Source: Pelagomonas calceolata (taxonomy: Eukaryota). Taken from it: a DNA stretch of 64,000 nt. Within the stretch, counting starts at the first letter, position 1. Each line of letters starts with the position of its first letter. Location: NCBI GenBank assembly GCA_918797485.1, contig CAKKNE010000001.1, forward strand, positions 2,666,001-2,730,000. The letters are read 5' to 3'. The position numbers and the translations under genes were made by a program. Shown here piece after piece: positions 1-30,478 of this stretch. Under the pieces are notes generated by a model that was not told the origin of the DNA, did no database searches, and saw only the letters and a list, made by a program, of their open reading frames with translations.

Positions 1-3000
1 AACCTTCGCCGCTAGCAACGATGATTGTTCCACCTGTTGATGTTGTACCGCGGCCTGACCGCAGGGTAAGCTCACCTCCAGCGCCGCTGGTGCCACTCCC
101 GACTGCCAATGTCACCCACCCACCTTGTCCCTGCGTCGCTGCGCCCGAGCCGATGTATATTCCACCGCTGTTGCCACCCTTCGCCGTGCCTGAGCTAAAG
201 GTTAGTACGCCCGAAGAGCCGTCGACCCCGCTATTAATTGTCGCCACGCATACAGACCCGCTACTTGTGTGCGTGCCCTCGCCGCTCCCCACATATATGA
301 CCCCGCCAGTGGACTGTGTTGAGCGACCAGAGCACACGCTCACTCCACCCCCGCTACCCGAAGTGCCGCTGCCAACAACGAGGGAAAGACTCCCTGAACG
401 ACCATTTGTCGCCGCGCCTGTTCCAATGTATATAGCCCCACTATTTGCATCTTTAGATGTTCCAGAGCTAAAAGCCAGACGGCCGCTACTACCCCCAATT
501 CCGGAGTTTGCCGTGGTCAAGAGCACCGATCCGCTGCTGGTTGCCGTGCCTTCACCACTCATAATCGACATCTTCCCACCAGTTCTCATCTCACTGCGAC
601 CTGCCTGCAGCGTCATCATACCGCCCTTACCGGATGTGCCACTTCCCACAGTCAGGACGAGCGAACCAGCGCGACCGTCCGTTGCCGCACCCGAACCCAT
701 ACACATGTCGCCGCTATTCCCTCCACTTGCAGTACCAGATGAAAAGACAAGGCGACCACTTGCACCACTTGTGCCAGCATTTGGTACGCAAACGAAGATG
801 GACCCGCTACTTGTCGCTGTCCCCTCACCACTTGCTGCAGACAACTCGCCACCAGTCTGGACGATAGACCCTCCTGCCATTATCCAAATCCCGCCTCCCA
901 CTCCCGATGTGCCGCTCCCAGCAGTTATGCCGATGGCTCCACCTCGTCCGCCTGTCGCGGCGCCCGTACCCAAGAATAGCATGCCGGAATTGCCCGCCTT
1001 GCTAGATCCACTACTAAAAATAAGATATCCGCTCGCACCAGAAGCACCACCATTCGCAGAAAGAACTATTACCGTCCCACTGCTAGTTGCCGTACCTTCA
1101 CCGCTTGCGAGCACCACCGAACCGCCGGAGCATGTGCCACTCTGGCCGGCACAGAGCGAGATGTCTCCACCGCGACCGCTTGTGCCGCTACCCACCGTGA
1201 GAAACACCGCGCCGCCCTGTCCACCTGTCGTGGTGCTAGTACCAAGCAAAATATCGCCACTGTTACCGCTTTTCGCAGATCCAGAGGAAAAGATCAGACA
1301 ACCAGAGGAGCCTGTAGTGCCGGAATTACTAGTGCGGACAGTGATCAAGCCGCTGCTACTCGAAGCACCTACTCCGCTCTCAATTGCAACCGAGCCACCT
1401 GTCCTCGTGGTCGAGAGGCCAGCGTCTAGGACAAGCGCACCACCCGATCCACTTGTGCCGCTACCAACAGAAATATATATAGCACCGCCTCTTCCGCCTG
1501 TTGCCGCTCCGCTTCCCAAGAGCAAACTGCCACTATTTCCATTACTTGCTGTGCCAGAAGAAAACACGAGGTGTCCACTTGACCCAGCCACGCCACTGTT
1601 TCCGGTTCTGAATGTTATGCATCCGCTGCTTGTCGCTGTCCCTTCGCCGCTAAGAAGCGAGAGAACTCCACCGGTCGCGGCCAGAGCATTGCTCGATCCG
1701 CTCTGTAAACCCAGAACACCGCCGTCTCCGCTAGTGCCGCTACCCACCGTCATATACATGGCGCCACCACGCCCCCCCGTAGCGCTGCCGCTGCCCAATA
1801 GCAGGTTTCCAGTGTTTCCCGTTTTTGAGGTTCCCGAAGAAAACGACAAACGACCGCTCGTGCCTGCGGCGCCAGCGTTGGGCGTGCGTATGCTGACTGA
1901 TCCGGAGGAGGAGGCGGTGCCTTCTCCGGACTCGATTTTGATCAGCCCACCGGTGGAAACCGCGGACTGTCCAGCTAGTAAACTCATTGAGCCACCGGCC
2001 CCACTTGTGCCACAGCCCACACTTAGTGTTATGGCACCGCCACGTCCACTTGTGGCCACTCCAGTACCGATGAGTAACGCGCCACTATTTCCGCAGTTGG
2101 CTGTGCCAGAAGAAAAGACAAGATGGCCACTTGCCCCTGTAACCCCCGCGTTGCCAGTCTGAATTACTAATGCACCCGAGGTTGATGCTGTTCCCTCACC
2201 ACTCGTCACTGCAACAGTACCGCCCGTTGCTACTTTGCTGAGACCGGCCGATGCATATAGATCTCCACCCCGTGCTGAAGTACCACTACCAACGCCTATA
2301 CTGAGCATGCCACCGCGACCGCCAGTGGCGGTTCCGCTGCCAATAAGGCAGCCCCCAGTATTGCCATTACTTGACGTGCCGGAGGAAAAGGCTACTAGCC
2401 CACTCGCTCCGTTGCCACCCGAGTTGGCTGTGCGGATGGTCAAGGCGCCCGAAGTTGTTGCAGTTCCTTCACCTCCCTCTAGCTTCAGGCTGCCCCCAGT
2501 GCGAGAGGTGCTGCGGCCAGCAAGGATCAGAAGTTCGCCGCCTCGGCCAGAGGTACCGCTGCCAACAGAGACTTTGATGGCACCACCACGGCCTCCTGTC
2601 GAAGCGCCGCTTCCAAGGAGCACTCCGCCCGTATTGCCGTCTTTTGAAGTCCCCGATGAAAACGAGAGCCATCCACTGGCTCCATCCTCCCCACCGTTGG
2701 CTGTCCGTATAGAGACTGAGCCGGAGGTAGATGCGGTTCCTTCGCCAGACTCGAGTAGCAGAGCACCGCCCGTGTACGAACCTGAGCGGCCAGCAGCAAC
2801 AAAAAGCATGCCGCCACCGGCGGACGTGCCGCTGCCGACGGTGAGACTGATCCGACCCCCGCGCCCAGAAGATGCGGCTCCACTCCCGATGAGGCAAGCT
2901 CCTGTATTTCCACCACTTGATGTTCCTGCAGAGAAAATCAGGGAGCCGGATACACCGCGAAAACCGGCATTTGCGGTAAGAAAGCAAACTGTGCCTGAAG

Positions 3001-6000
3001 TTGACGAGGCCCCCTCGCCAGTGGTCAAGATTAATGAACCGCCCGTACGCACGGAGGACGCCCCAGCAACCACAGTGGCGTTTCCTCCCGTCCCGCTGTC
3101 CCCTGTTCCTACGACTATCGTCATGTTACCGCCGCGACCGCCTGCAGAGTCACCAGACGTTATGTTTATCCAGCCACTGTTGCCATTGCTTGCTGTGCCG
3201 GTAGAAATGATCAAGTGGCCACTAACACCAGCGATACCTGCATTCGCAGTGGCAATTGTCATGTTGCCTGAGCTGTACTTTGCTCCATATCCCGATGTAA
3301 TCCAACAGCTCCCGCCGCTCGATGTGTATCCCTGCCCCGCCGTGATGGCAACGTGACCGCCACATCCATTGCATATGCCGGTACCATCGCCCGCGTGAAT
3401 GCTAATAGACCCGCCCGTCTTGTCGGACTGTGAAGTGTCTCCAGCGGTGACAGTGATGCTACCTCCATGGCCGCTGTCACCGGCACCGACCGAGACCTCA
3501 ATCGCCCCGCCTCCGCCGATATCGGCTGTTCCTGTTGCTATAAGAACAGAGCCCGTGTTTCCAGATGAAGAAGAGCCTGTCGTAAATTCGACACGCCCCG
3601 ATGCTCCCATTTCGCCACCGTTCATTGTCGACGTGGTTATTGAACCGGATGTGGATGTCGATCCATATCCTGATTTGATGAAGACAGATCCACCGGTGTC
3701 TGATCCTCCGATACCTGCAGAAACTGAGAAAGCACCGCCCATGCTAAATTCTTCACCGGCACCATGACCAGCAACGATAGTCACCGTGCCGCCACGGGAT
3801 ATTCTGCCATCTGTGCCGTCCGCGCTGGTCCCTCCCGCTGCGAGACTGACCGATCCGCCGTCGCCACTGTCGCCGTCTCCAACGAGAATAGTGAAAGCTC
3901 CTCCTCTGCCACTTGTAGCGGCCCCGGTTTCTAAAGCTACGTAGCCGGAGTTCCCTCCCGAAGACGTGCCTGTGCTAAGGAACAGATAGCCGCTTATGCC
4001 ATTATCTCCTGCATTCATCGTGCGCATAGACACCGTTCCCGATGTCGATGCAGTTGAATAGCCGGCAACAATAGATATCCTGCCCCCCGTACCCGAGTCC
4101 CCCCCTCCGACCTCGACGGACACGCTCCCCCCTGACCCAGACTCTGCAATGCCCGTAGTCATCTGGATCTGCCCCGAGTTCCCTTCACTTGCGTCGCCCG
4201 TCGAGACAACCATTCCGCCCGAGACTCCTGTTATCCCTGAGTTCGCCGTTTGCAAGGTCATAGCTCCAGATGTGGTCTCTTGCCCGTATCCCGTTGTCAC
4301 AAAGACCTCCCCTCCCGTGCCGATCTCAGACTCTCCTGCTATTAGTTCGACGCCCCCTCCATCTCGAGTTTCGCCACAGCCAGCATGGATAAATATAGAG
4401 CCACCACTTCCACCCGAGGCTGTACCTGTCGACAATAAGATCGCACCCGTGTTTCCATCATTTGTTGAACCGGTCGTCAAGGATATGGAGCCAGAAGAGC
4501 CTTTACTGAGCACGTTGGCTGTGCACATGTAGAGGCGCCCTGAGCTTGACTTCAACCCTTGTCCGGAGGAGATATAGATGTCGCCTCCCGGCGATCCACT
4601 CCCGGCAACAAACGAGAGGCCCCCTCCGGTACCATAAAGGCCTTCGCCCGAAGCAAGTATGATCTCACCGCCATCCCCTGCTGTAGAGTCTCCGGCATAC
4701 ATTTCCACATTACCTCCCGTGCCACTGTCGCCCGTACCAACCATGATCGTGATTTGGCCTCCGCGACCGCCAGCACCTTCGCCCGAGAGAATATCGATAG
4801 TTCCAGACGATCCCTCTTTCGCGTCTCCAGTTTGAAGCAGCAGCGCACCGCTCGCGCCACTTCGCCCAGCGTTGGCGCTTGCAAGGGTCACATCACCAGA
4901 GGCAGACTTTTCACTGTAGCCAGATAACAGACAAAGTTCCCCACCTGTTGCTGTGCTGGATCCACCGGCCCTTATTTCAACATTACCACCCTCCGATGTT
5001 GACGACATGCCAGCGCCACCCTCAATGGCTGTAGTGCCCCCCTTTGCATCCTCGCCCTCCGTAGATCCTCCAATCACCGAGACGCCTGCACCGTTGCCCT
5101 CCGCAGCATATCCTGCGGCGATGGCGACGGCGCCACCCCGTCCGTCCAAGCCATCGCCAGAGACCAAGCATAGGCTGCCGCCGATCTCGCCGCTGCCTGA
5201 TGACATAGTAATACCCCCTCCCATTTCATCATCACTTGAGTTTCCGGCGTAGATGTATGCGCCCCCCCCCCGGCCAGATGTCGAAAGCCCAACTTCGATG
5301 GAGACAGACCCAGATGCACCGGACGCGGTTGACCCACTCGAGATGCGGATCTTACCAGAATCGCCCTCCCCAGCATCCCCTGTGCAAATCGCAACGGAGC
5401 CTGAGCCGCAGTTTGCCTGTGCCGTTGACACGCTGACATCACCTCCTTGGTCTGAAGAGGAGGTGCCACTTGATATGGTCATGGCGCCTCCGGAACCATC
5501 AATGGCATCGCCTGCGGTCATGGTCATGTTTCCTCCTGAGTCCGCCCCATTCCCGGCTCTAAGCTCCACCTGCCCTCCTTTGCCTGCAGAGGAATCACCG
5601 CCATCTATGCGAATCTCGCCCCCCTGAGAGCCATCGCTCAGTCCAACTGACAAGAAAATCCCTCCTGCAGATCCGGAAGTTGCCGGGCCCGTGGTCATGG
5701 CGACGCTCCCGCTGTCGCCACTATTTGTTTGGCCTGTCTCAAACAGCAAATTTCCCGATGAAGTCTGGGCTGGTGATGTCATTATCGACACATCGCCACC
5801 CTTGCCGTCCGTTGATGGACCGGACCGAATCTCTACGGCACCACCGCCGCCGCGGCCCAGGCCGCCCTCGACCAACAGGCTCCCCCCCTGTTCACCCCTG
5901 CCTGCTGCGATGGAGGCGTTGCCCGCACACCCTGCTTCGCTCTCGCTAAGTGAGTCACCCGCTCGCAGTGTCACAGCTGCGCCACATTGCGCATTCGAGT

Positions 6001-9000
6001 TTCCACCCAGTATTCTAAGCCCACCCCCCTCCGACGTCTTTCCCGAACCTCCTCTAATCGACACCCCGCCACCAGCTCCAGACTCCGAATTAGAATGGCC
6101 GGCGACAAATGATAGATGACCGCCTGCGCAGGTCGACGAGTTTCCGGCTGACACTTGAATGCTTCCACCTATTCCCAGGTCGCTACGACCGACTCGAAGC
6201 GAGAGTGCGCCACCATTGCCCTGAAAGGAGCTGCCAGTTGATATCCAGAGTCCGCCCGAATCACCATTCATACTATCACCTATGTGCGAAGTTCTCAGAT
6301 ACAGGCAATGTCCGAACGTCTATGGGCTTTGAAACAAGCAAACGAAGGACGCCGGAGTATAGACCAGTGGAGATTGACATCGTGCCGGTCTCTGCCTGAC
6401 TGTCGCCGCTCTGGATCTGAATTTCGCCACTAGAGCCTGTGGCGGATGCGCCAGATGCGAGGCACAGGTCGCCTCCTTCCGCCATTTTCCCAGATCCACT
6501 AGCAAGAGTCACACTTCCGCCCGCAGTGCCAGAGCCCGCGCACAGGCACAAGGCGCCGCCGTTGCCTCCGAGAGCAGTTCCGGCCTGTAATTCCACGTCG
6601 CCTCCGGCACCAGAGCTACTGTAGCCGACTGAAAATTTAATACCACCAGCCCGGCCCGTAACGGCATCGCCCGTGCGGAAGCAAAATAAACCTGAATCTC
6701 CTTTATCCGTCGTGCCCGTTGCCGCACCGGTTGTAAAATTAATCGATCCCGAAGATAAAGATGAAGGAGTACGCAACCTACAAGTCAACAAGTCATAAGG
6801 ACGTGATAAGTAAGAAAAATTGGATGAGGGCAGATAGTAGGTACAACAGTGTTGATACTGTCTGATCCCCCGCCAGCTGTTAAAACTGCGGTTGTGGGCT
6901 CTATGTGTAACACTTTTTTTAAGGCGCGGGACTGCGAGACGTGATGTTACCTGATGGCCCCATTACCGAGGTGCCGGACTGAATCGCCACTGAGCCGCCT
7001 TGATCATCAGCTCCCGCTCCGGCTTGGATAGTAAAGGACCCCCCGACTGATCCAAAGCCTGCTAGAAAGTCTGCATCGCCGCCAGCACCCTCGGTTGCAC
7101 CACCAGCTTCTAGATGCAGCGCACCACCGTGAGCCGTCCCATTTCCACCACGAAAGCACACACGGCCTCCAGTTTCCACCTCGCCGTCACCGGCTGACAA
7201 GACCATGTCACCGCCAACTCCTCCGCTACCAGCCCTAAGATGAACACTGCCACCACGCCCACATTCGTCACGAGAGCGGCCAGCCGTCAGGTTAGAGTCA
7301 CCACCGACACCACCAGTCGCACAGCCGACGGCTATGGAAATAGAGCCAGACCCGGCTTCTTGGGCAACGCCAGTACTAATACTGATTGAACCTGCGTTCC
7401 CAAGAGCCGAGGAACCGGTTTTTAGTTCGAGCGCACCGGTGTGACCTAGCGCAGGTGGACTCACGACGTTTATATCGCCTGAACTCGCTTGATTGCTTGC
7501 CGTGTTGCCAGTAATTCTGCCCGAGGTGATGGCAACCGACCCACCCGTCCCCTGAGTCGTGCTACCTGCGCCAAGACTGAGGTCACCGCCACTTGCCTCG
7601 GTCCCATTCCCGGCGACCAGTCGTAGTGTACCTCCGGTTCCGCCCGCGCCCGCCTGCATGATTATAGCACCACCAATACCCGACATTCCCTCACCGACCG
7701 ACATGCTGATACCACCACCACCGGTCGTCGTGCTTTTGCCAGTGTGCAAACGTATTGAACCTGAGTTCATATCACCCTCTCCGGTCTCAAAGCTTAGATG
7801 TCCAGATTGGCTGTCCACGGTACCACACGCTGCACACGTTGCCACTTTTATATCACCACCCGCTGCGCCGTCGCCCGATGCTATGCTTACGCCACCACCG
7901 CAAGCGCTCCCAGCACCTGCATTGATTATGAGATTACCCCCCGCTACACCCGCGCCAGATGTAAATTCCAGGCTGCCACCTTCACTAGAGTCGTCCGTTT
8001 CGGAGAAAGACCTGCCTGCGTTTACGCTTATGGAACCACCGTCGTCCTGCCTGGAATCTCCCCCCTTGATGTTCAAGTTACCGCCGTGGTTGTCGGTTGC
8101 GTCACCGCCTTGGATTTCGACTCCGCCTCCGGTGACACCAGAGCCTCCTCTGAGCAGCAGGTCGCCTCCCACGCTAGCCTCTACATCACTCAACTGGACG
8201 TCGGAGGCGTGCGCGCCTCCTGCTGCGAAAACGACGTTACCGCCATGCCCATGGCCCGAGGTTCCCGCCAGTAGCTCTATGGCTCCAGACATTGACCCAT
8301 CGGAAGCCCCAGTGTGTGCTTGGATGGCGCCAGACTGGCCGGAGTTCACATCACCGGTACACAGGCAAATATTCCCATGACTTTGAGCATCGTTGTCATC
8401 AGGCCCATCCGATCCAGGCGGTGTGGTAATACGAACGTCACCTGACTTTATCATGCCAACACCTGATTGCATCGACACACTCCCCCCTTGTGCTTGGGTA
8501 CTTGTCCCGCCTTCTATTGTAACGTTTCCACCACCGCATCCTGATCCGCCCGCAACCCGAACAGAACCACCAGTGTTGCTGGTTGAACTACCCGCGCGGA
8601 CTTCCAGGGTTCCGCCTGGTCCACTGCACGACTGGCCCACTCGCACAGATATGTCGCCAGCACCTAGGGTTGATTCTCCAGAGCAGATCAACACCCTCCC
8701 TGACGTCGTGGTGGCGTTTCCAGACGACATTGTGAGATCTCCAGACTGTACACTTGCTTTGCCAGTTGTGAAGTTGAGACATCCTGATCGTCGTCCATCG
8801 CCAGATCGGATCTCGGCGTCTCCTCCACTTTCAGAACTACGTCCTGCTGAAATATGAATGGCGCCACCCCGACCGTCACCGCTTCCACCAGTCATATTTA
8901 TAGTACCTCCGCCTCCATTCTGCGACGAACCAGCGCAGACCCTAATTGACCCCCCAAGACCCGACGTCGCCTCGCCAACGACAACCGAAAAATTTCCCCC

Positions 9001-12000
9001 ACCTCGTGACAGCAAGGTGAGGCTACCCCCAGATTGAGTCCCAGCTCCCGAGGCAACTGACACGTTACCGCCGCGCTTACCGTCGCCTGCGAAAAACGAC
9101 GGCATGCTGTCAAATTTGGCACAGCCCAGGGACGCCCCCACATGCGCGAGAGGGGAGGGGTTGATTTGCAACGACACCGGAGGTAGCCTGCGCTCATTTG
9201 TATGTTGCCACCATGTCCAGTGCTAGATGTCTGCACAGTTGCATTTATAGACCCCGTGTTGCCATTGCTACTTGCGCCTGTCGAGAGACGAACGTCACCT
9301 GAATCGCCCGCGCCTGCCGTTCCGGTCGTAAGCGAGATAGCCCCCGAGCCACCCGCGCCCCCCGGACTCGCGCTGCCTACGAAAAAAGTGGGTTGCGACA
9401 AATCAGGGCTTACTTATTAGGGCCATCGAGCTATGGGGCCTTTCATTTTTACAAGACGCTGATTTCAGACCAGTCGCAATGCTAATGTTACCAGATGATT
9501 CCCCACCAGGACCAGATTCAAGTATTAATGCGCCACCATGATATACGCTGCCTTCCCCACTCCGAATTGTCAAGTTGCCTCCCGAGGCACCGCCGCCGGC
9601 AGCAAGGTTGGCAGACCCACCTTGTGCTGCCTCGCCCCAGATAGAACCAGCGGAGATGTTGACTTTTCCACCGCCTGATATACCGGTTCCCACCTGCAAG
9701 CTTAGGTCCCCCGCTTTGCCCTGCGGTGCATGGCCAGTCCGAATGGATACAGAGCCTGATGTTCCAGACGACACGTCGCCGGTATTCATCTCGATGCTGC
9801 CCGTCGTGGTACTGCCGTCGGCCTCGCCTTGATCTAGGGCAGGGCTTGCGGTGCTAAGCGTAAGATTCCCGGATCGAGTCGCGCTTGCGCCAGATTTGAC
9901 GTCAATGCCGCCGCCGTCTTGCAGAGCATCTCCACCGGCTACCGAGATCTCGCCGCCCGTCGTACATGTCGATGCACCGGCATGCAATAAAATTGCACCA
10001 CCTTTGGCTTGCTTTGAGTTGCCTGCGGTCACCGTCAGCCACCCTCCAGAGCCAGAGGATGCATTGGCGACACATACAGAGACGTTGCCGGCAGCTCCAC
10101 CAGCGACACCCAGCCCGCTTGAGATACTCACTGTTCCGCCTACTTGGCCGTTTGCAGCCGCAACGGTGACGTTTCCACCTAAGCTTCCAGTTGAGTTCCC
10201 AGCCTCGATGCGGATCTCGCCACCCTGCAGACCTGATCTGCCTACGTGCATGAGAATGCTGCCTGCGCTGCCGGTCTCTGATGTGCCCGTGGAAACAAGC
10301 ACCGTCCCTGAGCTTCCTGCAGGTGAATCCCCAGTCGACACCAAGACATCGCCGCTTGGTCCAACCTCTGAGGAAGTTTGCGCTGTCGCAAGACGCACGA
10401 TACCTGACCCTCCCTTCATACCAGCACCGGAATATACATCTATTCGCCCACCCACACTGTCCCCACACCCACCGCGCAAAGCAACTCCGCCACCCCGCGC
10501 ACCTTCTCCGCCGACGACTTGGACATGACCCCCAGCATTACCACATTCGATCGCAGATCCCGCCGTAACATTTATGGTCCCACCCCTGCCAGAGCCACTC
10601 GAGCCAACTGCGATTTGAATCCCCCCGGCCGCACCCTCTGGGTTTTCGCCCGTGCCAAGAAAGAGCGCACCCGAATCCCCAGCTCCGCCAGCTTCCGTAC
10701 TGCCCGTCGAAACGCAGATTCCACCCCGCGCAGAAGCAAGCGTCGCGGAAGCACCTGAAGTTATCCACATTTCACCACCCTGCGCAGCGCCGGTGCCGCT
10801 GGTCAAGTGCAGATCAGCTCCGGAAGTCATGGACACATTGCCGTCTGGTCCGCCGGTTCTTACGACGATGTTGCCTGAAATGCCTCCACCCCCGGCAGCA
10901 AAGATTACGTCACCACCTGCCTCGCCATCTGAGCCTCGAAGAACAATGTCGCCGCCCCCGACAGCACCACTCCCGCTACAAACAACAACAGCACCTCCAT
11001 TTTCTCCCTCCCCTCCCGCCACGCGCACACTCCCGCCGTCAATGCCTGCACTACTAGCTTCAAGTGAAATTCCTCCTGACGTGCCAGTCGCAGTGCCTGT
11101 CGAAACACAAATCCGGCCAGAAGAATCTGATGCGTCACCAGTCCCAATGCTTGCATCACCGGTATGACTCTGACTATCCTTGGTTTGCATGGAAATTCTG
11201 CCGTCCTTGTGAATCGTAAAATATTGATTGTGCGACTGCATGGCTGCAATCAAATCTAGCGTGAGGCCTTGCTTGTCAACTTGGTGGAATCCATCGAGGG
11301 AGAAATTGTAGGCTGGGTGGGTGTAGTTATCCACCACTTCGACACGCTCTGGGAATACCTCGCGTACATTCTGCGCGATTACGCCTCGCACAACCACGTC
11401 GTCGACTCCGCGTATTTTCAGCCACTCATCAGTGTATCGATAATTAGCTAACTTGATCTGGGTAAACCTGTCGTAGATATCATCTAGCTCCGCATCGTCA
11501 AGATAATGTATATCCTCCTTGATGCGTTCGTCTGACGAATACTCGATCTTGGTCACACGCATCGGCACTGTCGAGATAATCGACCCGCCGGCGCCCGCAG
11601 ATTCAAGCCTAAAGTCTGGTCCAGGTCGATTTGACACAGAAAACTCGATGGTGTTGCCAATCGCGCCCGATGCATCCAAACTAATATGACTCGCCGTCAC
11701 ACTTTGCTCCGCGGCAAGCATCTCCACCGTGGTCCCGTCGACTCTAATTGAACTACTGCCGGATCCAGATAGCACGCGCACCATGCCATGTGACTTTCCG
11801 CCGACGCCTGCCGATACTGTCACATTGGGGCCCGAATCTGTGCTGTTTGCAGCGCAGATGGATAAAGAGCCACCGTTGCCGTCGCGGGATGCTCCTGTCC
11901 GTAACGATACCACTCCGCCAATTTCTGGGTCTCCCCTACCGCCACCATCTATGATTATAGACCCACCCCTGCCAGACTCAGCAAGACCGCCACGGACAAT

Positions 12001-15000
12001 CACGTCACCGCCGGCATGCCCTCCACCTGCGGCTACTTCTACAGAGCCACCAGATCCGGAAGCATCGGAACTCGCGCCTGCTCTTAGGCTTATGTGGCCC
12101 CCAGCAGCGTTCGATGACGTACCAACATGCAAGAGAATGCTCCCGCTCTCTTCCTGTGCGCTTGCTGTTGACAGTGTCATGCTGCCCGAGACGCCCCGAG
12201 CTGCCGCTCCAGTCGATAGCTTGACAGAACCAGATAGTTCCCCGCTATCCGAACTCGCGATGGAAACTTTGCCACTCGAGCCCGTCGCACCGAGACCACT
12301 GGCCAACAGTAGACCGCCGCCGTCGAGCTCGCGACCAATTCCACCTGTTAGAATCACCTTTCCGCCAGAAACGCCATCACCACCGGTCAAATCAATATAT
12401 CCTCCAGTACCCCGCTGGGTTGCTCCCGCCTGAGCACATATATTTCCCCCGCACGAACCTGAGCTCTCCCCCGCTGCGACGTTGACTCCACCCGCTACGT
12501 CTGCTGAGCCAGTTTCAATTAGAACACTGCCACTTGAAGCCCCACTTGGCCCGGACAAGACCATGACGTCCCCGCTATCTCCCTGCTCGGAGGCTCCTGA
12601 GCCCAATGTCGCCGAGCCGCCAGTACACGACGCACTTGCGCCTGCAGCGATGCGCACATTACCGCCTATTCCCTCGTTGCTCGAACCCGATTGGAGTAAC
12701 AGACTACCACCTGATCCTCCCGAGCCCGCCTCCAGACTCACACTACCACCACATCCAATACCATTGGATGCACCTCCGCTTAACCATATGTCGCCCGACC
12801 TATCAGGTCCCGCACCGCTTATCAGCGCGACGCCACCGCCCAATTCACCTGCACCCGACGCTATCTCCACCCTTCCTCCGCTTGTGGCTCCGTCACCGGC
12901 AGAAACTGATATGTCCCCGCCATGACCTAGGGCCGACGCGCCAGTCGAGATGCCAATGGAGCCGCTTTGGCCCCCAGAGTCTCCAGTGGCAATCCTCACC
13001 CCACCTGATACGCAGCCCGTTCCGGTAGCCAGCAAAATAGCCCCGCTATCTTGGGTTGCCTGTCCACTCATAAGGCAAGCATCCCCGCTTGTTAAGGTAC
13101 CTGCGCCGCTGCGCATCACCACAGCTCCTCCAGGACCACAGCTACCAGAGCCCGCCTGTAAACTTAGCTCGCCACCACAACTGCCATCTCCCCCGATGAG
13201 CGACGTGCTACCGCCCAAACCTGATGCGGATGCGCCAGCCTGCATTGTAATAGCAGCACCATTGTCGTTGGCGCACAATCCAACGGACAGGTCCAAATCA
13301 CCAGCAATGCCGCCGGGTACGTTGCCCGTCTCAAGCCGAATATTTCCACTTGATCCGCTGGCGTCAGTCAATGTTGCCAGCCTCACGTCCCCACCTCTGG
13401 TTGCACCCGGGCCAGAGCTTATGTTGAGGTGACCACCAACTCCAGACGTGCTCCCGCCAGCTGTTATACATACCTCGCCGCCGTCTCTCGCAGCACCGTT
13501 GCCGCCACTGAGCGACAACTTGCCGCCGCGTGCACCGGCTCCTCCGGCTATTTCCATGCTACCACCAGTGCCCCTTGTAGAAACTCCGGCCGCTATTTCG
13601 ACGTCACCGCCGCTGGTGTCACCAACACCAGCACGCAGATCAATTGCCCCTCCTATACTTCCATCGCCTGCTGCGAAACAAGTAGAACCGCCAGATCCGC
13701 CCTCATCTCTCGTTGTACCCGCTTGCAGAGACAGTTCCCCACCCGATCCTACTGTGCTGCTACCGATACACACGTTGATGGAGCCACTGTTTGTCTCGGC
13801 TTCGCCAGTTGAGATGAATATCTCACCTGAGGCACCTGCGTATGCCACGCCGCTCGAAATAACAACGCCGCCAGACTGCGCTTCACTACTTGCACCTGTA
13901 ATGGACACGACCCCCCCTTCACTACCGACGAGCTCCAGATGTCCGCCGCCACCCCCGCTTCCGGTCCCGTCTCCGGCTATGACGGACACGGTACCGCCAC
14001 AGGTGCCATTCCCGCCCACTAAGGCGATATTACCACCTTGGCCTTGAGACGAGTCACCCGCTGCCAATTCTAGTTGGCCTCCCGCTCCGCTTGAGCTCTC
14101 GCCAACATCAAGGGTCAAGTTTCCTGAGCGTCCAGCCGACCCGGTGGCAAGGGTTATCCCCCCGCTTTTCGTTCTACCCTCACCGGTGCACAGAGACACT
14201 TTTCCACTTGAGGAGGCTGCGTCCGTGGACCCAAAGGAAGCGGAGCCGCCGGATGCCGCAATGATTGAAACTTTTCCACCGCTGGCGTCCTCATTACCCC
14301 CGGTGCCCGATGATGCACCACTTTGCAACGAAATATCGCCGCCCTTGGTTCCCGATCCCGCCCGAAAGCACACAGACCCGCCAGTCTCTTTCGAAGCGCC
14401 CGCACGCGCAAGTATGTTTCCGCCTGAAGCACAGCTACCAGAACCGCTTTGTAACGCAATGGTTCCTCCGCTCTTACCGTCTCCGGATGAAACATCCACA
14501 CCACCACCTTTCCGCAGTCCGTCACCAGCAGACGCAATTAGAGAGCCACCGTTTCCATGGCGTGACGAACCGACTGACAGCTCAATTGTGCCACTTTGGC
14601 TCACTGAATTGCCCGTGCCAATGATTACCCCACCCGAAACATCAGCCGATCCGCTTGCAATAGCTACTGAGCCACTCGTGCCGCAAACGTCCGCACTTTT
14701 CAAGAGTACGTCGCCACTAGCTAAGGCACCAGTACCACTGCCAACCTGAAGAGAGCCCCCGGAGTCGGAACCAGCTCCGGCCATGATGCTAACTTCACCA
14801 CCGGCTAGTCCATCGCCTGCCATAATGCTAGTCGGTCCTCCAGCACCAGCGGTTGCCATGCCGGCTCGCAACGCAATGGCTGAGCCCCCTCCAGAAGAAC
14901 TCGCGCCCGTAAAGCAACTAATGTTCCCGGCTCTACCATCCGTTGCGTCGCCAGTTTTGATGAGAACTCTACCACTCGACGCTTTCGCATCGCCGGTAGC

Positions 15001-18000
15001 CAGGTGGATCTCCCCGCTCGCTCTCTGGCCCATTCCGGCGGACAGCTTAATGTTCCCACCCGCCCCGTCGCTATCGCCGCCGATGATGTCCACGTTGCCA
15101 CCCCTGTCCCTATCTGAACAGCCTGCGGTCATCAAGACGCTTCCCCCGCAGCTGCCATCGCCTGCGGAAATCGTCGTGCTTCCTCCGTTGCCTTCGTCTG
15201 AGGTGCCGGCACTAAGCTCGACATCGCCGCCCTTCCTTGCAGTTCCCACACCCGCCCGGAGCCGAATGGCGCCACCAGCGTTTCCGCCGCCACCTGAGAT
15301 TCCTATGGATCCGCCATAGCCGCCGCTAGCCGTTGAAGCCTCGCCCACGCCCAGGACCAGATTTCCAGCATCACCTAACAAACTCGAACCAACAAAGAGA
15401 CTGATTCCGCCGCTACCGCAATGGCCAGCACCGGTGGAGACAAAAATGTCTCCGGAGGCGCCTTCAGCCACACAACTAGTTGAGACCTCAATGTCTCCTG
15501 AAGAAATAGTGCCCTTTGCAGATTTGATGGTAACGTCACCACTCTTGCCGGCCCTTCTAGTAAGCTGCGTTCCACTGAAGATTTCCAAGTTGCCGCCGGC
15601 TGCGTCGATGCCAGCGCCCGCGTTCAAGCTTATGTGGCCTGCAGAGGCTCCATCTCCAGCCGCAAGGCGCAGAAGCCCACCCTGACTAGCCGCCGAATCG
15701 CCGGCTACAAAAATGACGCTGGCCCCAACACCGGTTTCTGAGTCGCCCGCCTGAATTGATAAAGTCCCCACAGTATCTCGAGCATCACCAGTGGCAAGAA
15801 TGATTTTGCCACTGGCGCCCCAAGTCTGTGCCCGTCCCGATGATATTGATACGTCCCCGGAAGCTTTGCCGCTAGCAGTGGTTATGGCAACCTGTCCACC
15901 CACATCACCGGTGCTTGTCCCGCTTTCGACGACTACTGAGCCGCCCAGTTCCATATCATCCCGCCCCGCTTTGATAATTATTTCACCGCCCTTACGTCCC
16001 CCACCCGCATGTAGGTCAACCGCTCCACCGAGTCCTCCGGTCGCCTCGCCTGCCACAAGCTCGAGGTTGCTGCCGCGGATGCTCGTGTGGCCCCCAAGAT
16101 CACCTTGACCAGACGCAACAATAATTTCACCACTACCACCACTGCCGCAAGATGAGCCCGTCGAGCATACTTTCACCGCGCCCCCACCGCTGGTAGCCAA
16201 ACCAGCACAAAGCTCGATGTTGCCAGCTGAGCCCGCCGAATCCCCGGTGGCGATGGATACGTCCCCTGAGTTCCCTTGAACAGATGTCCCAGTTGCGAGT
16301 AGAATGCCCCCACTTGCACTGCTTTCGGCACTTGCGATCGTAAAAGTGCCGCTGGTCCCTTCGCCACCACTTCCGCTGCATAAAGTGAGGGTGCCACCTC
16401 TTTCTCTACCATCGCCAGCTTTGAACTGGATGCTGCCACCGATGTCTCCATTGCCGGCGTTTACGTCGAGTCTGCCGCCAGAAGCCCCTCCGTCGCCTGC
16501 GTGCACGGATATTCTGCCGCCGTCGCCGGCAAGCGAGGCCCCGGACGCCAGCGAGATGTCGCCAGCGATACCAGATACAGCATCCCCCACGGCAACACAG
16601 ATGCCATTGCCCGAATCTCCGTTCATTGCTTCCCCTGTTGTGAGGGCAACGCCGCCTCTGGTGGCGGTCAGGCTTACATCGCCAGCGTTCTCACCATCTC
16701 CCGCTTTCAGAGAAATACAGCCACCATCTGCGACACCAGAGCCGGTAGATAGCAAAATATCTCCCTTGTTCTTGGCCTTCGAGCTAGTCATGAGTGAAAT
16801 AGAGCCGCTATTGCCGCTTGCGGCGGCCCCACTCTGTACGAGAATGTCCCCGCTCTCACCCGAAGATGCGCGCCCCGTCTGTAAGTAAATGGCGCCAGAG
16901 CTCGGCGCAGCCTTTGTGGTCAGTGCGAGAGAACCGGACTCCGAAGATGTAGACTCACCAATAGAGTACCGGTCGTGAAGGGCTTGGAGGCCGCCGATGA
17001 CGTCAAGGGCAAGCCGTTGTTTATCAACCCGATAAAATCTCGTTTTTTGGAACCCCTTGTCTGGAAGCGAGTATGTTTCGAGGACGGATATATGCTCAGG
17101 GAAAATCTCATTGAGCTCTTGTGCAATCACGCCGCGGACTCGCTTGTCGGGAATCCCCCGAACGGCCCGCCACTCGTCCGTGTATCCGTACTCAGTAATT
17201 CGAACTCTTTGCAGGCGGTGAAGCAAGTCGGCCGTGTCAACCGGCTGAAAGTCTTTCTTGATGCGACGATCCGAAGGGCTTGTAAATGACGGAGCCGAGA
17301 TTGGTACGTCAGAATATAACTCGGTGTTGCCGTCACCATTTGTGGTGAGTCGAACATCATACGTCGCAGAACTGCCATCACTATCAGTGATGCCCCAACC
17401 AATTGTGCCGTCCGGACCAGCGAGGAAAGAGACGTTGCCTCCCGAGCCACTCACCACATCGATGTTGTCGCCAGTGATATTCAAGTATGCATCTGTGCTC
17501 AAAAGTGTGGCCGATGCTTTATTTGAGGTAATCGAGACGTCCCCTCCCCGACCACTATCCGACTCGCCGGCTTGGAAAACTATGTCGCCGGCGTCACCAC
17601 TAGTTGTGCTTCCCGTCGCCAGGATTAAATCCCCAGAATCGCCGCCGGTGGAATCCCCTACACAGCGCAAATGATACATGTGAGTAAATACGGGGCATGG
17701 GGAGGGCTTGTTTATGGGGTTTGTTTTCATGCAGCTGCCGGAAAAAGTGAAGTTCGAAAAGACAGATCCGTTTTGTGCTAAAGGTATCCCCCTTATCAAT
17801 ACCCAGGATCCCGATGGCTAAACGCACCTGTGGTTATGGTAATACTTCCGGCAATGCCTCCAACAGCATCCCCTGTTATGAGACTAAGGTCGCCAGAATT
17901 TCCTTCTGCGATGGCTGTGGCACAAGATAGACTACCCGTCACGCCCCCCGGGGCGGCTCCCCCAGTCAGCGATACCGCGCCACCGGCCACTCTCAGGTCG

Positions 18001-21000
18001 CCCCCAGCATCGCTCGTTGACTCGCCGGCCACGAGAGAGATAGCGCCAGCAGCACCGACTTCCGAACCGCCTGCGCAGATGGTAACGTTTCCCGAGTTCC
18101 CACTTTCCGCAGTACCCGAGGTAAAGCAAATGTTGCCTGTGTCCCCGGTGCTCGAAGTTGGCGTCGAGATCTCGACGACGCCTCCAGCTCCGACCGTCGA
18201 TGCGCCGCTCGAGATGCTAAGTGTGCCGCCTCCAGCTGTGCCCGCGCCGCTTGTCATAGAAAGATTGCCTCCTGCATCGTCGGTACCGGCCTTTATAGAA
18301 ATACTGCCAGCGCTTGAAGATGCAGGGGCAGTGTCACCTACGTAAATTGATTTAAACGGCGGGGAAAATAAATCTGAACTCTCTCAATTTGTATCAATTA
18401 TGACTTGTTGACTACGATAGCCAACAAACTGACTCTGATTTCTGCCTGTCGAGATTGATATGCTGCCCGACGACCCTGATGAAGTAGATGAGTCACCCGT
18501 AGACAGAACCAACTGGCCCGTTGTGACAAGCAGCGAGCCCGAAGCGCCGGACGTACTATCGCCGGTCGTCACGCTAATCGTACCCGACGATGATGTCCCT
18601 TGTCCGGAAGAAACCTCCACGTCCCCCCCGAGACCACCTGCAGTGACACCAGCTTCAAGCAGGATGGTGCCACCAGCACAACTGGCCTCGGTCGATGCGC
18701 CAGCTGTCATCGTCAGGTTAGCTCCGTTGCCTGAGGTGGCATGTCCGACAGACAACGCAATGCCACCTCCCACCGAAGTTGTCGCTCTCCCGGAGAGGAC
18801 GCAGACTGAGCCGGAGGTGCCCGAGCTTGAGATCCCAGTCGAGATTGCAAGTCGACCGCTTCCCGAGGTGGCGCCGCCGCCCGCTGTGGCGATTGTGACG
18901 TTGCCGCTCTCTTTTCCCGCACCAGAGGATATTGACAGGTTGCCGCCATGCTGCCGGGAGGAGTTACCGGCAGCCAGTGACAGAGGTGCCCCCGCACCAC
19001 TTATTGACATCCCGACAGAGATAATCACATCTCCAGCTTCTCCAGCAGAAGAGTCTCCGGATGCAATTGCAATTGACCCTGAAGCCGGCAAACCTTCACC
19101 GGCACTACCAGTGGCTGCACCAGTAGCTACTTGTATAGATCCAGACGTACTGTCCGTTTGGCTCGCATTACTTGTAGCGATGGCGATCCCCCCTGTTGCC
19201 AACTTTCCGCCGCCAGAGAGGAGAGCCACCGAACCACCCGCGGCTTGCGAAGATCCAGCGCCAGCGCTGATGTGGATGTTCCCGCCGGCATAATTTTCCT
19301 CTGGTACTTCGTTGAGATTATCTCCTGCGGTGAGGTATAGCGAACCGCCGCAACCGGTATCACCGTAACCTGCGCCTGCTTCCATAATAATCGAACCCCC
19401 AGCACCAGTTGCTGTGCCTGTCGCCAAATGAATGCTACCCGAGTTCGTGCGATATTCGTCGTCACTCCGTCCTCCATCTGCCGTCCTTACCGTGATACAG
19501 CCACTTTCCCCATAAGTTGACTTTCCTGATGTGAGTGCGATGGCACCCCCAGAAGGGGTGGTCTCTGCGTCGTCCTCTGCTTCTTTGAGATCAAGCTTTC
19601 CGGCAGTGATGCGAATGCTACCTGCTGAACCTGACGAAGCCTCGCCAATGGACATGGATATATTTCCTGATCGGCCACTTGATGCAGAGCCTACAAGAGC
19701 AGTTATAAATCACACTGATTGCAACTACAAAATATAGCTGACGCTCAGTCGCGAGCCTGTGCTAAGTGAAATGTCGCCGGTCGTGCCGGTCGACGCGGCA
19801 CCAGTTGTCAGCATTATGTCGCCCGAAGCGCCATCAGTTGGATCTGCGGTACCAATGGTCAAATTTCCGGAGAACGTTTCGCCTGTCCCCGAAACAAGTG
19901 TTAGAAGACCACTTTGATCACCAGAACCTGACGCTATGAGGATGTCCCCAGATTCGGAGCCATTTCCAGCCATCAAAGAGAGACTGCCTCCCCGCGAACT
20001 CTTTGAGGACCCCGCAGTGAGAGAGATTGACCCCGCGTCGCCTGCTTCTGAGTTTCCCGTAGTCAGGGAAACTGCGCCTGAACGGCCGGCTGTGGCACTG
20101 CCAGACTGAATCACAATATTTCCAGAGTTGCCCGTCGTTGATGCCCCACCAGAGGTGATTTGGATACCCCCGGAAGCACCTGTGCCCGACCCCGTCGACA
20201 CATTGAACCGGCCGGAACCGACCCCGTCGCCGCCGTCTGCCGATGCCAGCGAAACAGAGCCCGACGTACTAGAGGTTGACGCACCAGAACGGATCAAGAC
20301 CAGTCCACCGGTGGAGTCTGTCGAGGATCCGCCTTGCAGCACCAGGTCACCGCCAGCACCAGCCGTTGAGACTCCAGGAAAAACTTCGACAGTCCCCGAA
20401 GTACTTTTAGACGAGCCCGTGGCCACGCTGATGCTGCCCGAACTCACGCCATCGCCTGTTGCTATTTCGATCGCTCCAGATTGTCCCGTGGCTGCATTGG
20501 TTTGAATTGTAGCATGACCACTTGATGATTTCGCTGAAGCGCCCGAGCTGATTGTCACAGAACCGCCGCGGCCTGATGTTGAGTCTCCCGCGGCCATAGC
20601 GACGTCACCGCCAGCTTTGCCGGTACCAGTCGACACCACGATCGTACCAGCTTGACCAGACTTCGCATCACCCGTGCAAAGCGAAATGCTCCCTGAGTTG
20701 CCTTCTCTTGACGTACCCGTCGCCAGGGTCAGAGTGCCCGTGTCTGCTTCAGCCGAATACGCTGAGGTTAGATTGACTGCACCACCGTCTTGCTCAGACG
20801 ATTCGCCTGCGAGCAGTGCAATATCTCCACCTCCCGTTGCTCCGGATCCAGCTTGGATGATGGCATGCCCACCTCGCCCCGATTGAGATTCGCCCGCAGC
20901 GAGTATGATGGCACCACCATCCCCGCCATCCTCTAAGGAGGCCCCTGCAGTGAAGGATATGTCCCCTCCAGTACCAGAGTCACCCTCTCCAACGGACATC

Positions 21001-24000
21001 GATATTGAGCCGGCCGTGCCTCCACTAGCACGCCCGGTAGATACATTGACCCAGCCACTGTCTCCGCCTTCGGCCGTACCGGATTGGAGCAAAAGATATC
21101 CGCTAGCACCGTTGCTGCCAGAATTGGCTGTCTCGATGATGACTAAGCCTGAAGTAGTTTTCCTTGAATAACCGCTGACGATCCGTATGTCACCACCCGT
21201 CTCATCTGTAGCATCGCCACCTTGCAAAATAGCATCAGCACCGACCCCCGACTCCGAAATGCCGAGCCTCATGTAGACTGTTCCCGCTTTGCCTTGTGTT
21301 GCGGTGCCTGCGGGACAGAAATTCGGCGTACTTCAAGATACTTAAGTCAATGCGCTGGAATGAACCTGTGGTCAGCAAAACATCTCCAGAATTACCCGTG
21401 GTAGCATTCCCTGTCACTATTGTTACCTGGCCGGAATCCCCTGAATCTGCCGTGTTACTTGAGGCGATTTCAATATCCCCTGTTTTGCTTGAGGTGCCCG
21501 TCGCCGCACCGGAAAGCAGTTCAATGTTACCACCCTCGTCAGTAGCGCATCCCCCCTCAAGACACACGGCCCCGCCTCGAGCAGATCCGTCACTCGTATC
21601 GCCTGCTGTCAGCGAGATGGCGCCCGCAACGCCACCTGCGGCCGCACCCGTGCCAACAGTCAGTCCGCCTGTGTTGCCGTTCGAGGTCTGGCCAGAGGCT
21701 AGAGTTATTTTACCCGTGGTGCTTGAGTCGTCTGCAGATTTTAGGCTGATTTGTCCCGCTGTTCCTTCGGTTGATGGGCCAGAGAGGATTAAGATTGACC
21801 CACCTTCACCTTCCGTCCCACCAAATGCGGACCCGGCTACTAGCTCCAAATCACCGCCCGAGTCGCCGTCTGACGAGTCTGATGCGTTGCCAGACCGAAG
21901 GATGACTTGACCGCCACCACCCGCCATCCCGCCGCCTGCCAGCAATTTGACACTACCACCGGGCGAGTCTGGGCCGTTTGTACCTCCCGCATTAATCGTG
22001 ATATTACCACCCGCACCAGTTAGACCTTCACCGACGCAAAGTTCAACGTGACCTCCGTCGCCTGAGCTAGCAAGACCAGTTCCCAGGGTGAGGTTCCCGG
22101 ACAGACCATTTGTGCCGCCTTTGCCTACGAGCGGGGGACTGCTTAACAAGTGCCAGCACCCACGTGTGCTTGCGTACAAAATTGTCACGTGAGGACACTG
22201 AAACACGACCGGTTGTGACAAGAACATCTCCCGAAGAGCCACCTTCACCGCCGTCCGGCGTTCGAAGGGTGATTGGTCCACTAGTCGATTCAGCTGCGGC
22301 TCCAGATGTCACGCAGATGCCCCCACCACGAGCTGAATCTGCGCTCGCACCTGCAGTTACACTGATATCGCCCCCGATTCCCGTTGACGATCCGACCGAC
22401 AGCGTTAAGCGCCCTGCATCGCCGCTTTCTGCATCGCCAGTTTCGATAAGTATGTCGCCAGAGCTGCCCGTAGACGCGCCCGTGTGGATTGAAATGCTTC
22501 CAGAGCCATCGAGTCCATCAGATGCTGTTTTGAGACTCACAGAACCCGACCTGTCGGTATCTGAGGGTCCAGATAGCAATTGAATGCTGCCGCCATCACC
22601 TGACGCCGCTCCTCCTGCTGTTATGACAAGAGATCCGCCCTCTGAGGCCGCATCAATAGAGTCGCCGCCAGCGAGCGTCACATTGCCGCCCGTTCCACCT
22701 TGACCGGCGGCGAGGGCCATAGATCCGCCCAAGCTATTCGAGCTATCCGAAAGCTCGCTTCCTCCAGCGGCCATGGTGATGGACCCGCCAGGCCCACATC
22801 CGGTTTTACCAACAAGCAATGTGATGCAACCGGCGCTCGCTTCAGCGGAGTCTCCGGTCGACAGCATAATGCCGCCGCTCGTCCCATCTGTAGAGGAACC
22901 AGTCTCGATATCTAGCTTACCCGAGCTTCCATCCGACCCTGCGTTCACCGTCCGAATCGTAACTTCGCCTGAGGACGTGTCTGAGCCTGTTCCCGACTCA
23001 ATAGTGATGCTGCCCCCTGCGCCCTGATTGTCTGAAGTTCTCCCAGCCTGAATGTATATCTCGCCGCCAGCACCAGAGGCTGTTGAGCCCACTTCGAGCA
23101 AGAGCTTGCCCCCTGTTCCCTGTTTTGTTGACCCTGTCTTCAGGCAGATAGCACCTGAGCTTCCTCCAGTTGCGATACCAGTACTTAATAAAACATCTCC
23201 TGAGGCTCCCTCGGAGCCTGCATCGGCTGTGAGGAACTTAATTGACCCTGACATCGACGATTTTGCGTTTCCGGAGCGCATCAAAATGTCCCCACCGGCT
23301 CCGCTGTCGGCTTGCGAGTCGCCCGCTTGGAGCGTCAAACAACCGCCCATGCCGGAGTTGCTTTCGCCAACAGCAAGTGAGATGTTCCCGCCTGGACCAC
23401 CGTTCCCTTCGCCCGTTTTCAGGTGAATTGCGCCCGAATCTCCACAACTTGATGATCCAGTGCAGAAGAGGATGTCGCCGGACACACCCGCCTCACCAGC
23501 ATTGGTAGTAGACAGTGTAATTTTGCCAGATGAACTGTCCAGTCCAGCTCCTGAAGATACTAAAACAGAGCCCCCACTGCCGCTGAGGGCAGTGCCGCCT
23601 GCAAGAGACACGTTTCCACCTTCACTGTCTGGAGATTCGGACGCAAGTGAAAGTCCGCCCTGAAACAGTATTCCGCCCCCGTTACCACCATTTGTGTGAA
23701 TGGAATTACCACCAAATAAGCTCAATTTGCCGCCAACACCATCGGTCGCTTTCGAATCACCAGCAACCAGTTCAAGATTGCCACCGTCTCCACTGGCACC
23801 CGTCCCGACGCACATAGAGATAGAACCGCCCGAGCCGCCCTCCGCGGAAGACCCAGTCTCCATCACTATTGAGCCCGAATCGCCTGATTCTGCATCTCCA
23901 GTTGTGAAATACATCGAGCCACTTGCGCCGAGAGATCCCCCTTCGGCTGTTCTGATGAATATTGGACCTGACGTGGAAAGGGTGGATGCGCCCGAGGACA

Positions 24001-29468: not shown

Positions 29469-30478
29469 GCCGCCCGACGAGCCTCGCTTTCCAACCGCTC
29501 CTATAGGAACTCCATCTCAAAGACACTTATTTTGAGCGGACCGAAGGTATCTATCCAGGTACCATATATCATGCTTGAAGTTTTTTATTTACCGCAGTAA
29601 CCTCCAGTCCAGCCCTATATGACGGGCCGCGCCGAGCCCTATAGGACGGCGACCTGTAAGACACTAGCAAGCAAAACCAAACGCGTCACGCAGCCGTCTG
29701 AGTATCCTTCCGTTCGCTACTGGTCCAAAGAGATCAATGCCAGTGGGACAAGTACTTGTAGACCGCCGCGCTGCCGCCGCCGCCGGCCCGGGCCCGCCGG
29801 GAGTATCACTAGGCGGCCTGGCATGACTCGGGTGGGGCCCGGCCCGGGCCCGGACCGGACTATCGTGACTGCCACGCACAACTCGGGACTGGAAACTCGA
29901 AACTGGGCAAACCGTTGACCGTCGGACTGGGCCGGGCAAACTGGTCAATCGGGCTGGCCTGTTGTTGCTGCCCCCTGTCACTGGCAGTGCACTTCAACTT
30001 GTGCTACTATTGAAAAATTGATAGTTCCAATTATTCACTGGCAAGTTCGACTCGGAGTAAAATTCCATATTCCACATTACTACTACTAGGCTACTGGTAT
30101 TCAATGGGTCCGAGTCCCGGGCCCGGACCATCATGCTATCATGATCGTGCTACATAGCACAATTACCAGCGTAGTATGCTAATCTCAATAATATTATAAT
30201 GCTATTTCTAAACTTTGAATGCTATTCTGCTATTTCGCATTTTGAACGTCACGGTGCTGCCAAGGTCCAAGTTCAAGTTCAAGTTGGAGCCTAATACACT
30301 TCGGGTCTAAGAGGCTAGTAAGAGCAGGCCCTTGTTGTGAACCTAGCATTGTATGGGATTGATGGATTCCACCAGGACAGCACCTTGATCGGGGAGGATG
30401 TCTTGAGAGAGGCTGGTATCATCATCATCATGATGATGCCAGCCCCGGGGCCCGGGCCGCCGGGCCTGAGTGATAGAA

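Follow-up and report, generated by a model that had tools for sequence, protein, structure and literature searches.

Results and discussion

A giant spliced gene in the window

A 64,000-nucleotide stretch of Pelagomonas calceolata DNA (assembly GCA_918797485.1, contig CAKKNE010000001.1, positions 2,666,001 to 2,730,000; hereafter the window) carries on its reverse strand, at 2..29468 (-), the in-window part of a single spliced giant gene, put together from chained open frames and beginning with an ATG at 29468. The encoded protein has a signal-like N-terminus with PSI repeats followed by very long runs of short Gly/Ser-rich repeats, and within these runs stand two cassettes, each made of a neck module and an intramolecular chaperone auto-processing domain (ICA; Peptidase_S74 family). 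The gene has at least about 9,400 codons, an approximate figure because three introns towards the 3' end are predicted only from in-frame GT/GC-AG candidates, and no stop closes its frame before the window edge.

RNA evidence for the gene comes from metatranscriptome contigs of four runs from three studies, mapped to 8800-22400 and 22000-31500. Eight introns, five GT-AG and three GC-AG, appear as joints in these contigs. Spliced contigs of X18 and X20 extend to 29447 and 29516 at exon 1, and a 5,467-nt spliced contig of X20, which includes the joint of intron 7, connects five exons and continues through ICA 1 to 16477. At the same joint a contig of X18 has an 11-letter overhang at 17827 that equals window positions 17646-17656. 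Removal of five introns leaves a coding sequence (28729-9404) of 6,279 codons with no stop. The interval 2-29468 (-) is confirmed as a single gene, spliced and transcribed, from a pelagophyte-like alga among the stramenopiles. Its three GC-AG introns are consistent with the high share of such introns, ~14-17%, reported for pelagophytes (bioRxiv 10.1101/2024.10.30.620910), and the window stretch itself is contained in marine metagenomes and metatranscriptomes from 12 studies.

Exon 1 and the 50-residue exon 2 together encode 182 residues. The PSI repeats of exon 1 match Pfam PSI (PF01437) in two stretches at E 3.2e-9, and the signal peptide was assigned by eye from the hydrophobic stretch.

Two ICA cassettes with Ser-Lys dyads

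Both ICA domains are contained in a single intron-free exon (open reading frame, ORF, 9403-17799 (-), 2,798 residues). Pfam Peptidase_S74 (PF13884) matches this ORF in two stretches (E 1.1e-23; score 83.7 bits, gathering cut-off 22) and has no match in the nine other ORF pieces of the gene. A family hidden Markov model (HMM) run over the six-frame translation of the window likewise finds two sites only, ICA 1 at E 5.8e-63 and ICA 2 at E 7.2e-57, with the next best at 0.48. The cassettes are 37% identical to each other over 169 residues (BLASTP E 3e-27), and the motif SD.R.K occurs in the ORF exactly twice. An initial annotation of the window had placed S-D-x-R-I-K near residues 3839 and 5752; counted along the RNA-supported exon model, the two serines carry exactly these numbers (182+3657 = 3839; 182+5570 = 5752), and the strings that it had listed as shared, such as Y.YTDEW, VRGVIAQ, FPE and VDKQ.L.LD, are indeed present in both copies. 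RNA contigs of X15, X16 and X18 cover ICA 2.

The resemblance to the MYRF ICA that the same annotation had pointed out also proves to be real. A sequence search of the PDB returns the MyRF ICA structure 7dc3 as the sole significant match (E 7.3e-11 for cassette 1; 5.2e-6 for cassette 2, phmmer). The Ser and Lys of the cassettes align to S587, mutated in the 7dc3 structure, and K592; PMC8326128 equates these two with S911 and K916 of endoNF. Further, R590, I637, Q639, F666, V669 and K671 of 7dc3 have identical counterparts in the window alignment. These six residues are described in PMC8326128 as lying at or near the cleavage centre; that work further reports that S587A and K592A abolish cleavage, and that trimerisation suffices as the trigger. 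For cassette 1, an AlphaFold2 (AF2) model from an alignment of 40 sequences (predicted local distance difference test, pLDDT, 87) has beta-strands ahead of the Ser and an ICA domain that ends in an 18-residue helix (model residues 160-177). Its best fold match in the PDB is again 7dc3 (template modelling score, TM, 0.71; E 5.7e-8; root mean square deviation 2.4 A across 115 columns, with 31% identity). Next in rank are the T5, endoNF and GA-1 phage chaperones at 12-23% identity, and 283 viral tail-fibre models match it at E<=1e-3 with 14-23% identity. A MyRF-like ICA fold is predicted for cassette 1 on the strength of this model, and by profile match and alignment both domains are genuine ICA (Peptidase_S74) members with the dyad.

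A homologous neck ahead of each ICA domain, also claimed in the initial annotation, is established by the family profile; pairwise similarity alone is not convincing, as the score of 33 between the two necks is equalled in 90 of 5000 shuffles and in 18 of 340 windows from the repeat region. The neck-only HMM was built from 45 other family members, with the window protein and near-identical proteins left out, and in the six-frame translation it finds exactly the two necks (next best 3.3 bits). The neck is thus a conserved family module that stands ahead of each ICA domain and nowhere else in the window. For neck 1, AF2 predicts a beta-hairpin (pLDDT ~85).

Table 1. Positions of the exons, introns, fibre segments and cassette modules of the giant gene in the window
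Feature	Position	Strand	Remarks
Exon 1	29073..29468	-	132 residues; signal-like hydrophobic N-terminus, then two PSI (plexin) repeats
Intron 1	28993..29072	-	80 nt, GT-AG; joint in RNA contigs of X18 and X20, coinciding with a candidate intron
Intron 2	28730..28842	-	113 nt, GT-AG; joint in X18 and X20 RNA, coinciding with a candidate intron
Fibre segment 1 (exons 3-7)	17828..28729	-	Gly/Ser-rich ~15-residue repeats; from joints and repeat period
Intron in fibre segment 1	22125-22209	-	GT-AG
Intron in fibre segment 1	21308-21365	-	GT-AG
Intron in fibre segment 1	19691-19756	-	GC-AG
Intron in fibre segment 1	18338-18445	-	GC-AG
Intron 7	17658..17827	-	170 nt, GT-AG; directly upstream of the exon with both cassettes
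Neck 1	17275..17409	-	~45 residues, ORF residues 131-175; neck-only family HMM E 3.3e-14
ICA domain 1 (Peptidase_S74)	16933..17274	-	SDRRIK; Ser3839 codon 17272-17274, Lys3844 codon 17257-17259
Fibre segment 2	11671..16932	-	~1,750 residues of 13-15-residue repeats between the cassettes, no intron
Neck 2	11536..11670	-	~45 residues, ORF residues 2044-2088; neck-only family HMM E 3.1e-15
ICA domain 2 (Peptidase_S74)	11203..11535	-	SDERIK; Ser5752 codon 11533-11535, Lys5757 codon 11518-11520
Fibre segment 3	2..11202	-	repeats downstream of ICA 2, running past the window edge
Intron downstream of ICA 2	9087-9187	-	GC-AG; joint 9084/9186 in RNA contigs of X18 and X20

The canonical layout of such proteins is one C-terminal ICA per fibre (as in a relative described below, P0285, and in the viral fibres treated in PMC12220804), and several separate fibre genes, each with its own terminal ICA, could mimic one gene. 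This reading is hardly credible here, and it was rejected on the unbroken frame, whose 6,279 stop-free codons span both ICA domains, and on the spliced contig that links upstream exons, across ICA 1, to the repeats behind it. The repeats, moreover, resume in frame 15-25 residues past each ICA, an orthologous sequence (L013) has the same layout, and ORFs with several cassettes are found in the relatives L019, P0002, P0282 and P0113.

Selection on the cassettes

The orthologue L013 has both cassettes at the same spacing as in the window, its exon protein is 92% identical, and the synonymous divergence (dS) is 0.24. In this comparison the ratio of nonsynonymous to synonymous divergence (dN/dS) is 0.016 for cassette 1 (2 nonsynonymous and 33 synonymous changes) and 0.022 for cassette 2 (2 and 23), against 0.19 and 0.25 for the repeat runs (the former for fibre segment 2) and 0.18 for the exon as a whole. 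Necks and ICA domains share in this constraint, with nonsynonymous/synonymous counts of 0/9 in neck 1, 2/24 in ICA 1, 1/7 in neck 2 and 1/16 in ICA 2. The contrast between cassettes (4/56) and repeats (232/366) has a Fisher p of 6.6e-8, and the lowest five of 101 sliding windows all overlap a cassette. Within the 2,800-codon exon no other part is as constrained as the two cassettes, and purifying selection much stronger than on the surrounding repeats is supported for both. More distant collinear pieces also keep the dyad (L015, with cassette 1 at 65% identity, and L038, with cassette 2 at 75% identity). The initial annotation had held that both copies remain under selection to cleave; the selection is there (dN/dS ~0.02), and the words "to cleave" are a reading of the retained dyad.

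Fibre repeats

The repeats have a period of 13-17 residues, mostly 15, with the consensus GxSGxIxLxTGxSxx. Fibre segment 2 is an unbroken ORF to which genome-collinear RNA contigs correspond (X15, 9938-14762; X16, 13544-18104). No hydrophobic 19-mer (Kyte-Doolittle mean >2.0) occurs in the three in-window stretches that were scanned, ~9,090 residues in all. Repeats in common with the giant gene are found in an Ectocarpus protein. A protein search with the last exon gave no extension of the gene, only the relatives P0282-P0285, and a search of the ESM Atlas gave unnamed clusters only.

The last in-window exon (2-3500 (-)) shows a very regular higher-order repeat of ~120 residues, roughly eight units of ~15 residues. 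This tandem array has expanded recently and extends beyond the window edge.

Relatives and the origin of the two copies

With a two-cassette profile searched against 1.84 billion protein representatives, 2,072 proteins pass E<=1e-3, of which 56 also pass E<=1e-30. Those close to the window protein are repeat proteins rich in Gly and Ser, known for the most part as fragments in marine assemblies. Relatives carry one to four cassettes: two in P0003, three each in P0002 and P0282, four each in L019 and P0113. The four of L019:1-15295, from another marine organism, stand in a 5,098-codon ORF, and two of them, with a cassette devoid of Ser and Lys between them, are identical to each other, indicating a recent tandem duplication of a unit of ~1,180 residues. 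P0113 (5,473 residues, unrelated in appearance, rich in Gly, Thr, Ser, Ala and Asn) has four intact S..K ICA domains spaced ~1,100 residues apart, and its different composition means that multi-ICA layouts also exist outside the algal fibre family. A simple layout is seen in P0285, with N-terminal EGF-like domains, repeats and one ICA near the C-terminus, and L022 has a PSI-like N-terminus homologous to that of the window protein. Cassette 1 searched among proteins of 1,538-4,897 residues gave no match at E<=1e-8.

Trees were made of 80 and of 54 cassettes and are poorly resolved, with 148 columns. In neither tree are the window cassettes sisters: cassette 1 groups with cassettes of L013, L015, P0005, P0020 and P0057 (Shimodaira-Hasegawa-like approximate likelihood ratio test, SH-aLRT, 99) and cassette 2 with those of L013 and L038 (SH-aLRT 96). 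The four L019 cassettes, in contrast, form one cluster (98), and all three P0002 cassettes belong to a single eight-row clade (88) that also takes in their counterparts in P0003 and P0009. A tree constrained to unite the two window clades is worse by 11 log-likelihood units, which the approximately unbiased (AU) test does not reject (p 0.106); the group tested was named only after the tree had been seen. In a broader tree both copies belong to a family clade (SH-aLRT 92) separate from the MYRF/MrfA clade (98), and also apart from viral matches of IMG/VR and the remaining S74 groups; the tree does not resolve how these branch. The phylogeny proposed at the outset could have put the two domains in unrelated clades; instead they share this one. 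To judge from these trees, the cassettes are old paralogues within one algal fibre family.

The initial annotation had gone further and proposed that a whole fibre-neck-ICA cassette was duplicated within the gene. The homology of neck plus ICA (37% identity) stands; the duplication is undecided, as the two are not sisters and the AU test (p 0.106) does not reject their joining, and for the fibre parts that flank the cassettes no homology is demonstrable beyond generic repeats. If there was an intragenic duplication it would be an old one, and the joining of two fibre genes is the alternative.

Fibres tipped with S74 domains are common in protist viruses, as described in PMC12220804 and bioRxiv 10.64898/2026.02.06.704369, and the giant gene has a G+C content of 57-59% compared with 46-52% for most of the remaining window, so that a fibre gene endogenised from a giant virus or polinton-like virus could be considered in place of a host surface protein. 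We find this very improbable. The excess of G+C sits at codon positions 1 and 2 (GC2 0.63-0.68) and follows from the content of Gly, Ala and Ser; at third positions the gene (GC3 0.49-0.52) is close to its neighbours (0.43-0.49). Eight spliceosomal introns, three of them GC-AG, host genes on the one visible flank, and an orthologue at dS 0.24 with a gene-wide dN/dS of 0.18 all count against a viral gene. A scan of IMG/VR with one peptide pattern gave only pieces of 35-37% identity, and S74 is reported absent from the polinton-like viruses of ochrophytes in PMC12220804. Introns, host-like GC3, a selected orthologue and the lack of close relatives in IMG/VR argue for a resident cellular gene, and on the introns, GC3, the orthologue under purifying selection and the distant IMG/VR matches a recent viral insertion was rejected. 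An ancient viral source of the whole fibre family is possible.

Comparison with known ICA proteins

With MYRF and MrfA (7dc3; PMC8326128, PMC3742443) the window protein shares the Ser-x4-Lys dyad, several residues of the cleavage site, an ICA domain that is internal and not C-terminal, and an intron-containing eukaryotic gene. It differs in having thousands of fibre-repeat residues upstream and two ICA copies, and its ten ORF pieces give no Pfam match to Ndt80/PhoG, MYRF_ICA (PF13887) or MRF_C2; an animal MYRF (P0146) used for comparison gives all three (NDT80_PhoG, MYRF_ICA and MRF_C2). Membership of the MYRF family was rejected since no DNA-binding domain is found in any of the ten pieces. 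MYRF and MrfA are tethered to the endoplasmic reticulum and nuclear, whereas the window protein would be secretory.

The TLP-12 glycofibril is described as a trimer built from 12-residue Gly/Ser repeats, and its candidate precursors as carrying an ICA domain at the C-terminus (bioRxiv 10.1101/2025.09.30.679562). In the account given there, these precursors (Amoebophrya A0A8J1ZHD7 and relatives) are, like the window protein, giant protist proteins of short Gly/Ser-rich repeats; each repeat contributes two short strands to a trimeric interwoven beta-helix, and the ICA is proposed as the folding agent. The repeats are different in kind (12-residue GSxxSx7 against the ~15-residue GxSGxIxLxTGxSxx of the window gene), and with a period of mostly 15 the window protein is not of the TLP-12 type by repeat. 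The report has one C-terminal ICA where the in-window part of the giant protein has two internal ones, each following a repeat array and followed by more repeats, and the sources are alveolates, not stramenopiles. Glycosylation, as a coat of O-glycans, and the trimer, demonstrated in that report, would be extrapolations for the window protein.

The phage chaperones (endoNF 3gw6, T5 L-shaped fibre 4uw8, GA-1 3gud) and the S74 fibres of protist viruses (in the description of PMC12220804) have the fold and the dyad in common with the cassettes. There, the ICA domain is a C-terminal chaperone that trimerises a beta-helical fibre and then removes itself; it is present as a single terminal copy, in intronless viral genes, and identity to the cassette 1 model is 12-23%. 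In the window protein more fibre follows each ICA, and the domain would stay attached to the next piece. With spliceosomal introns, host-like GC3, a host neighbour and two internal copies, the gene falls outside the class of viral fibre genes.

ICA domains are known from viral fibres, as single and mostly terminal modules for folding and cutting, and from MYRF, as its release switch. A literature search, preprint supplements not being covered, brought up no protein described with more than one ICA domain. Here two are found inside one giant, predicted secretory protein of a widespread marine alga, which widens the eukaryotic uses of the phage-type ICA domain beyond MYRF.

Proposed assembly and cleavage

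The reading that we think probable, by a modest measure, is that of a two-cassette repeat protein whose cassettes likely trimerise, template a three-chain fibre and are predicted to cut it. The protein of more than 9,000 residues would enter the secretory pathway. Each ICA would trimerise through its terminal helix and, by analogy to known fibres, template the upstream ~15-residue repeats, so that three chains form a beta-helical fibre, whose repeats are possibly glycosylated as in TLP-12 fibrils. The Ser-Lys dyad would then cut the chain before Ser3839 and Ser5752. Both cuts together would yield three trimers: a PSI-headed fibre of ~3,838 residues per chain, a piece of 1,913 residues beginning with the ICA-1 trimer, and a piece of at least 3,600 residues beginning with the ICA-2 trimer. 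Because the repeats resume so soon after each ICA, every downstream piece would start with an ICA trimer, and since the C-terminal helix bundle of the ICA joins the next repeat run directly, it may set the register of the N-terminus of that fibre.

The state of the dyad in relatives bears on this proposal in both directions. In 160 domain rows (the window ORF and its best 150 matches), 129 span the dyad; both residues are present in 107 of these, and in the other 22 either Ser or Lys or the pair is missing, most often through Ser to Ala, with dyad-less domains scoring as high as intact ones. As the dyad is lost in 22 of 129 in spite of an intact fold, its retention in the window cassettes argues for cleavage. 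The Ser, the Lys and the equivalent of the MyRF Arg are kept by both of these and by the orthologues L013, L015, L038, P0005 and P0020. Between the closely related three-cassette proteins P0002 and P0282 the nucleophile of the second cassette is Ala in one and Ser in the other, so that by sequence comparison gain or loss of the dyad is rapid among relatives, and in L019 a cassette that lacks both Ser and Lys sits between two intact ones.

The main rival draws on these same observations (the 22 dyad-less domains with the rest of the domain kept, the Ser/Ala difference at one cassette of P0002 and P0282, the dead cassette of L019 between live ones) and takes the ICA domains to be mainly permanent nodes of trimerisation and registry in one uncut, very long fibre, with cleavage absent, partial or conditional. 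We consider it unlikely for the window protein, in view of the Ser, Lys and Arg that its cassettes and the five orthologues retain, and of MyRF, for which PMC8326128 reports cleavage that is triggered by trimerisation alone and lost in S587A/K592A.

Several further points weigh against the reading of a protein that folds and cuts itself. The non-cleaving cassettes of relatives mean that the fold is useful without cutting. The triple-beta-helix fold of the repeats would follow from analogy and from short predicted strands flanking cassette 1; an AF2 monomer model of a 350-residue repeat stretch is almost without secondary structure (pLDDT 57) and uninformative. In L015 a stretch of N-terminal repeats is 80% identical to the window protein and cassette 1 only 65%. 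With regard to expression, collinear contigs in RNA libraries alone are no proof of transcription, and contigs of X15 and X16 (one study) read across intron 17658-17827 unspliced, which if retained would place a stop codon in frame. The unspliced contigs could be DNA carry-over, pre-mRNA or the result of regulated splicing.

If the cassettes do template and cut fibres as proposed, a more far-reaching version can be put forward tentatively, as a possibility that falls somewhat short of probable. The gene would encode a self-dicing fibre polyprotein, a precursor of more than 9,400 residues folded segment by segment by internal phage-type ICA domains and then divided into three or more separate fibres, each of three chains and probably glycosylated, with an ICA trimer capping the N-terminus of every downstream one. 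Loss of a dyad would fuse segments and so tune the length and number of fibres. The occurrence of up to four cassettes with the dyad on or off suggests such modular folding and dicing of very long trimeric fibres. The window protein is a testable candidate for the way in which protists assemble giant extracellular fibrils; if the polyprotein version is true, protists would have a general means, not described before, of making the giant fibrils outside the cell that cryo-electron microscopy of natural waters now reveals.

Neighbourhood of the gene

The window is nuclear DNA of a eukaryote, and genes for C2-domain, EMP70, MFS, APC1, SNF2 and calpain proteins adjoin the giant gene at 30-64 kb. 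The best named relatives of the EMP70 protein are from pelagophytes (74-75% identity), and other marine sequences are 82-100% identical. No tRNA gene is found in the 64-kb window.

Upstream of the giant gene the summed depth of X16 contigs rises to 213 at 29608-29924 and 453 at 31193-31500, compared with ~10-15 over the gene, and many loose contig ends occur near 31124-31448. The jump in depth may reflect an element that is strongly expressed or present in several copies, or else reads that belong to other organisms.

Beside the fibre gene, on the forward strand, three C2-domain ORFs stand in a row (32375-32971, 34256-35056 and 35188-37971). They are probably exons of one multi-C2 gene (32375-37971) of the synaptotagmin or ferlin type.

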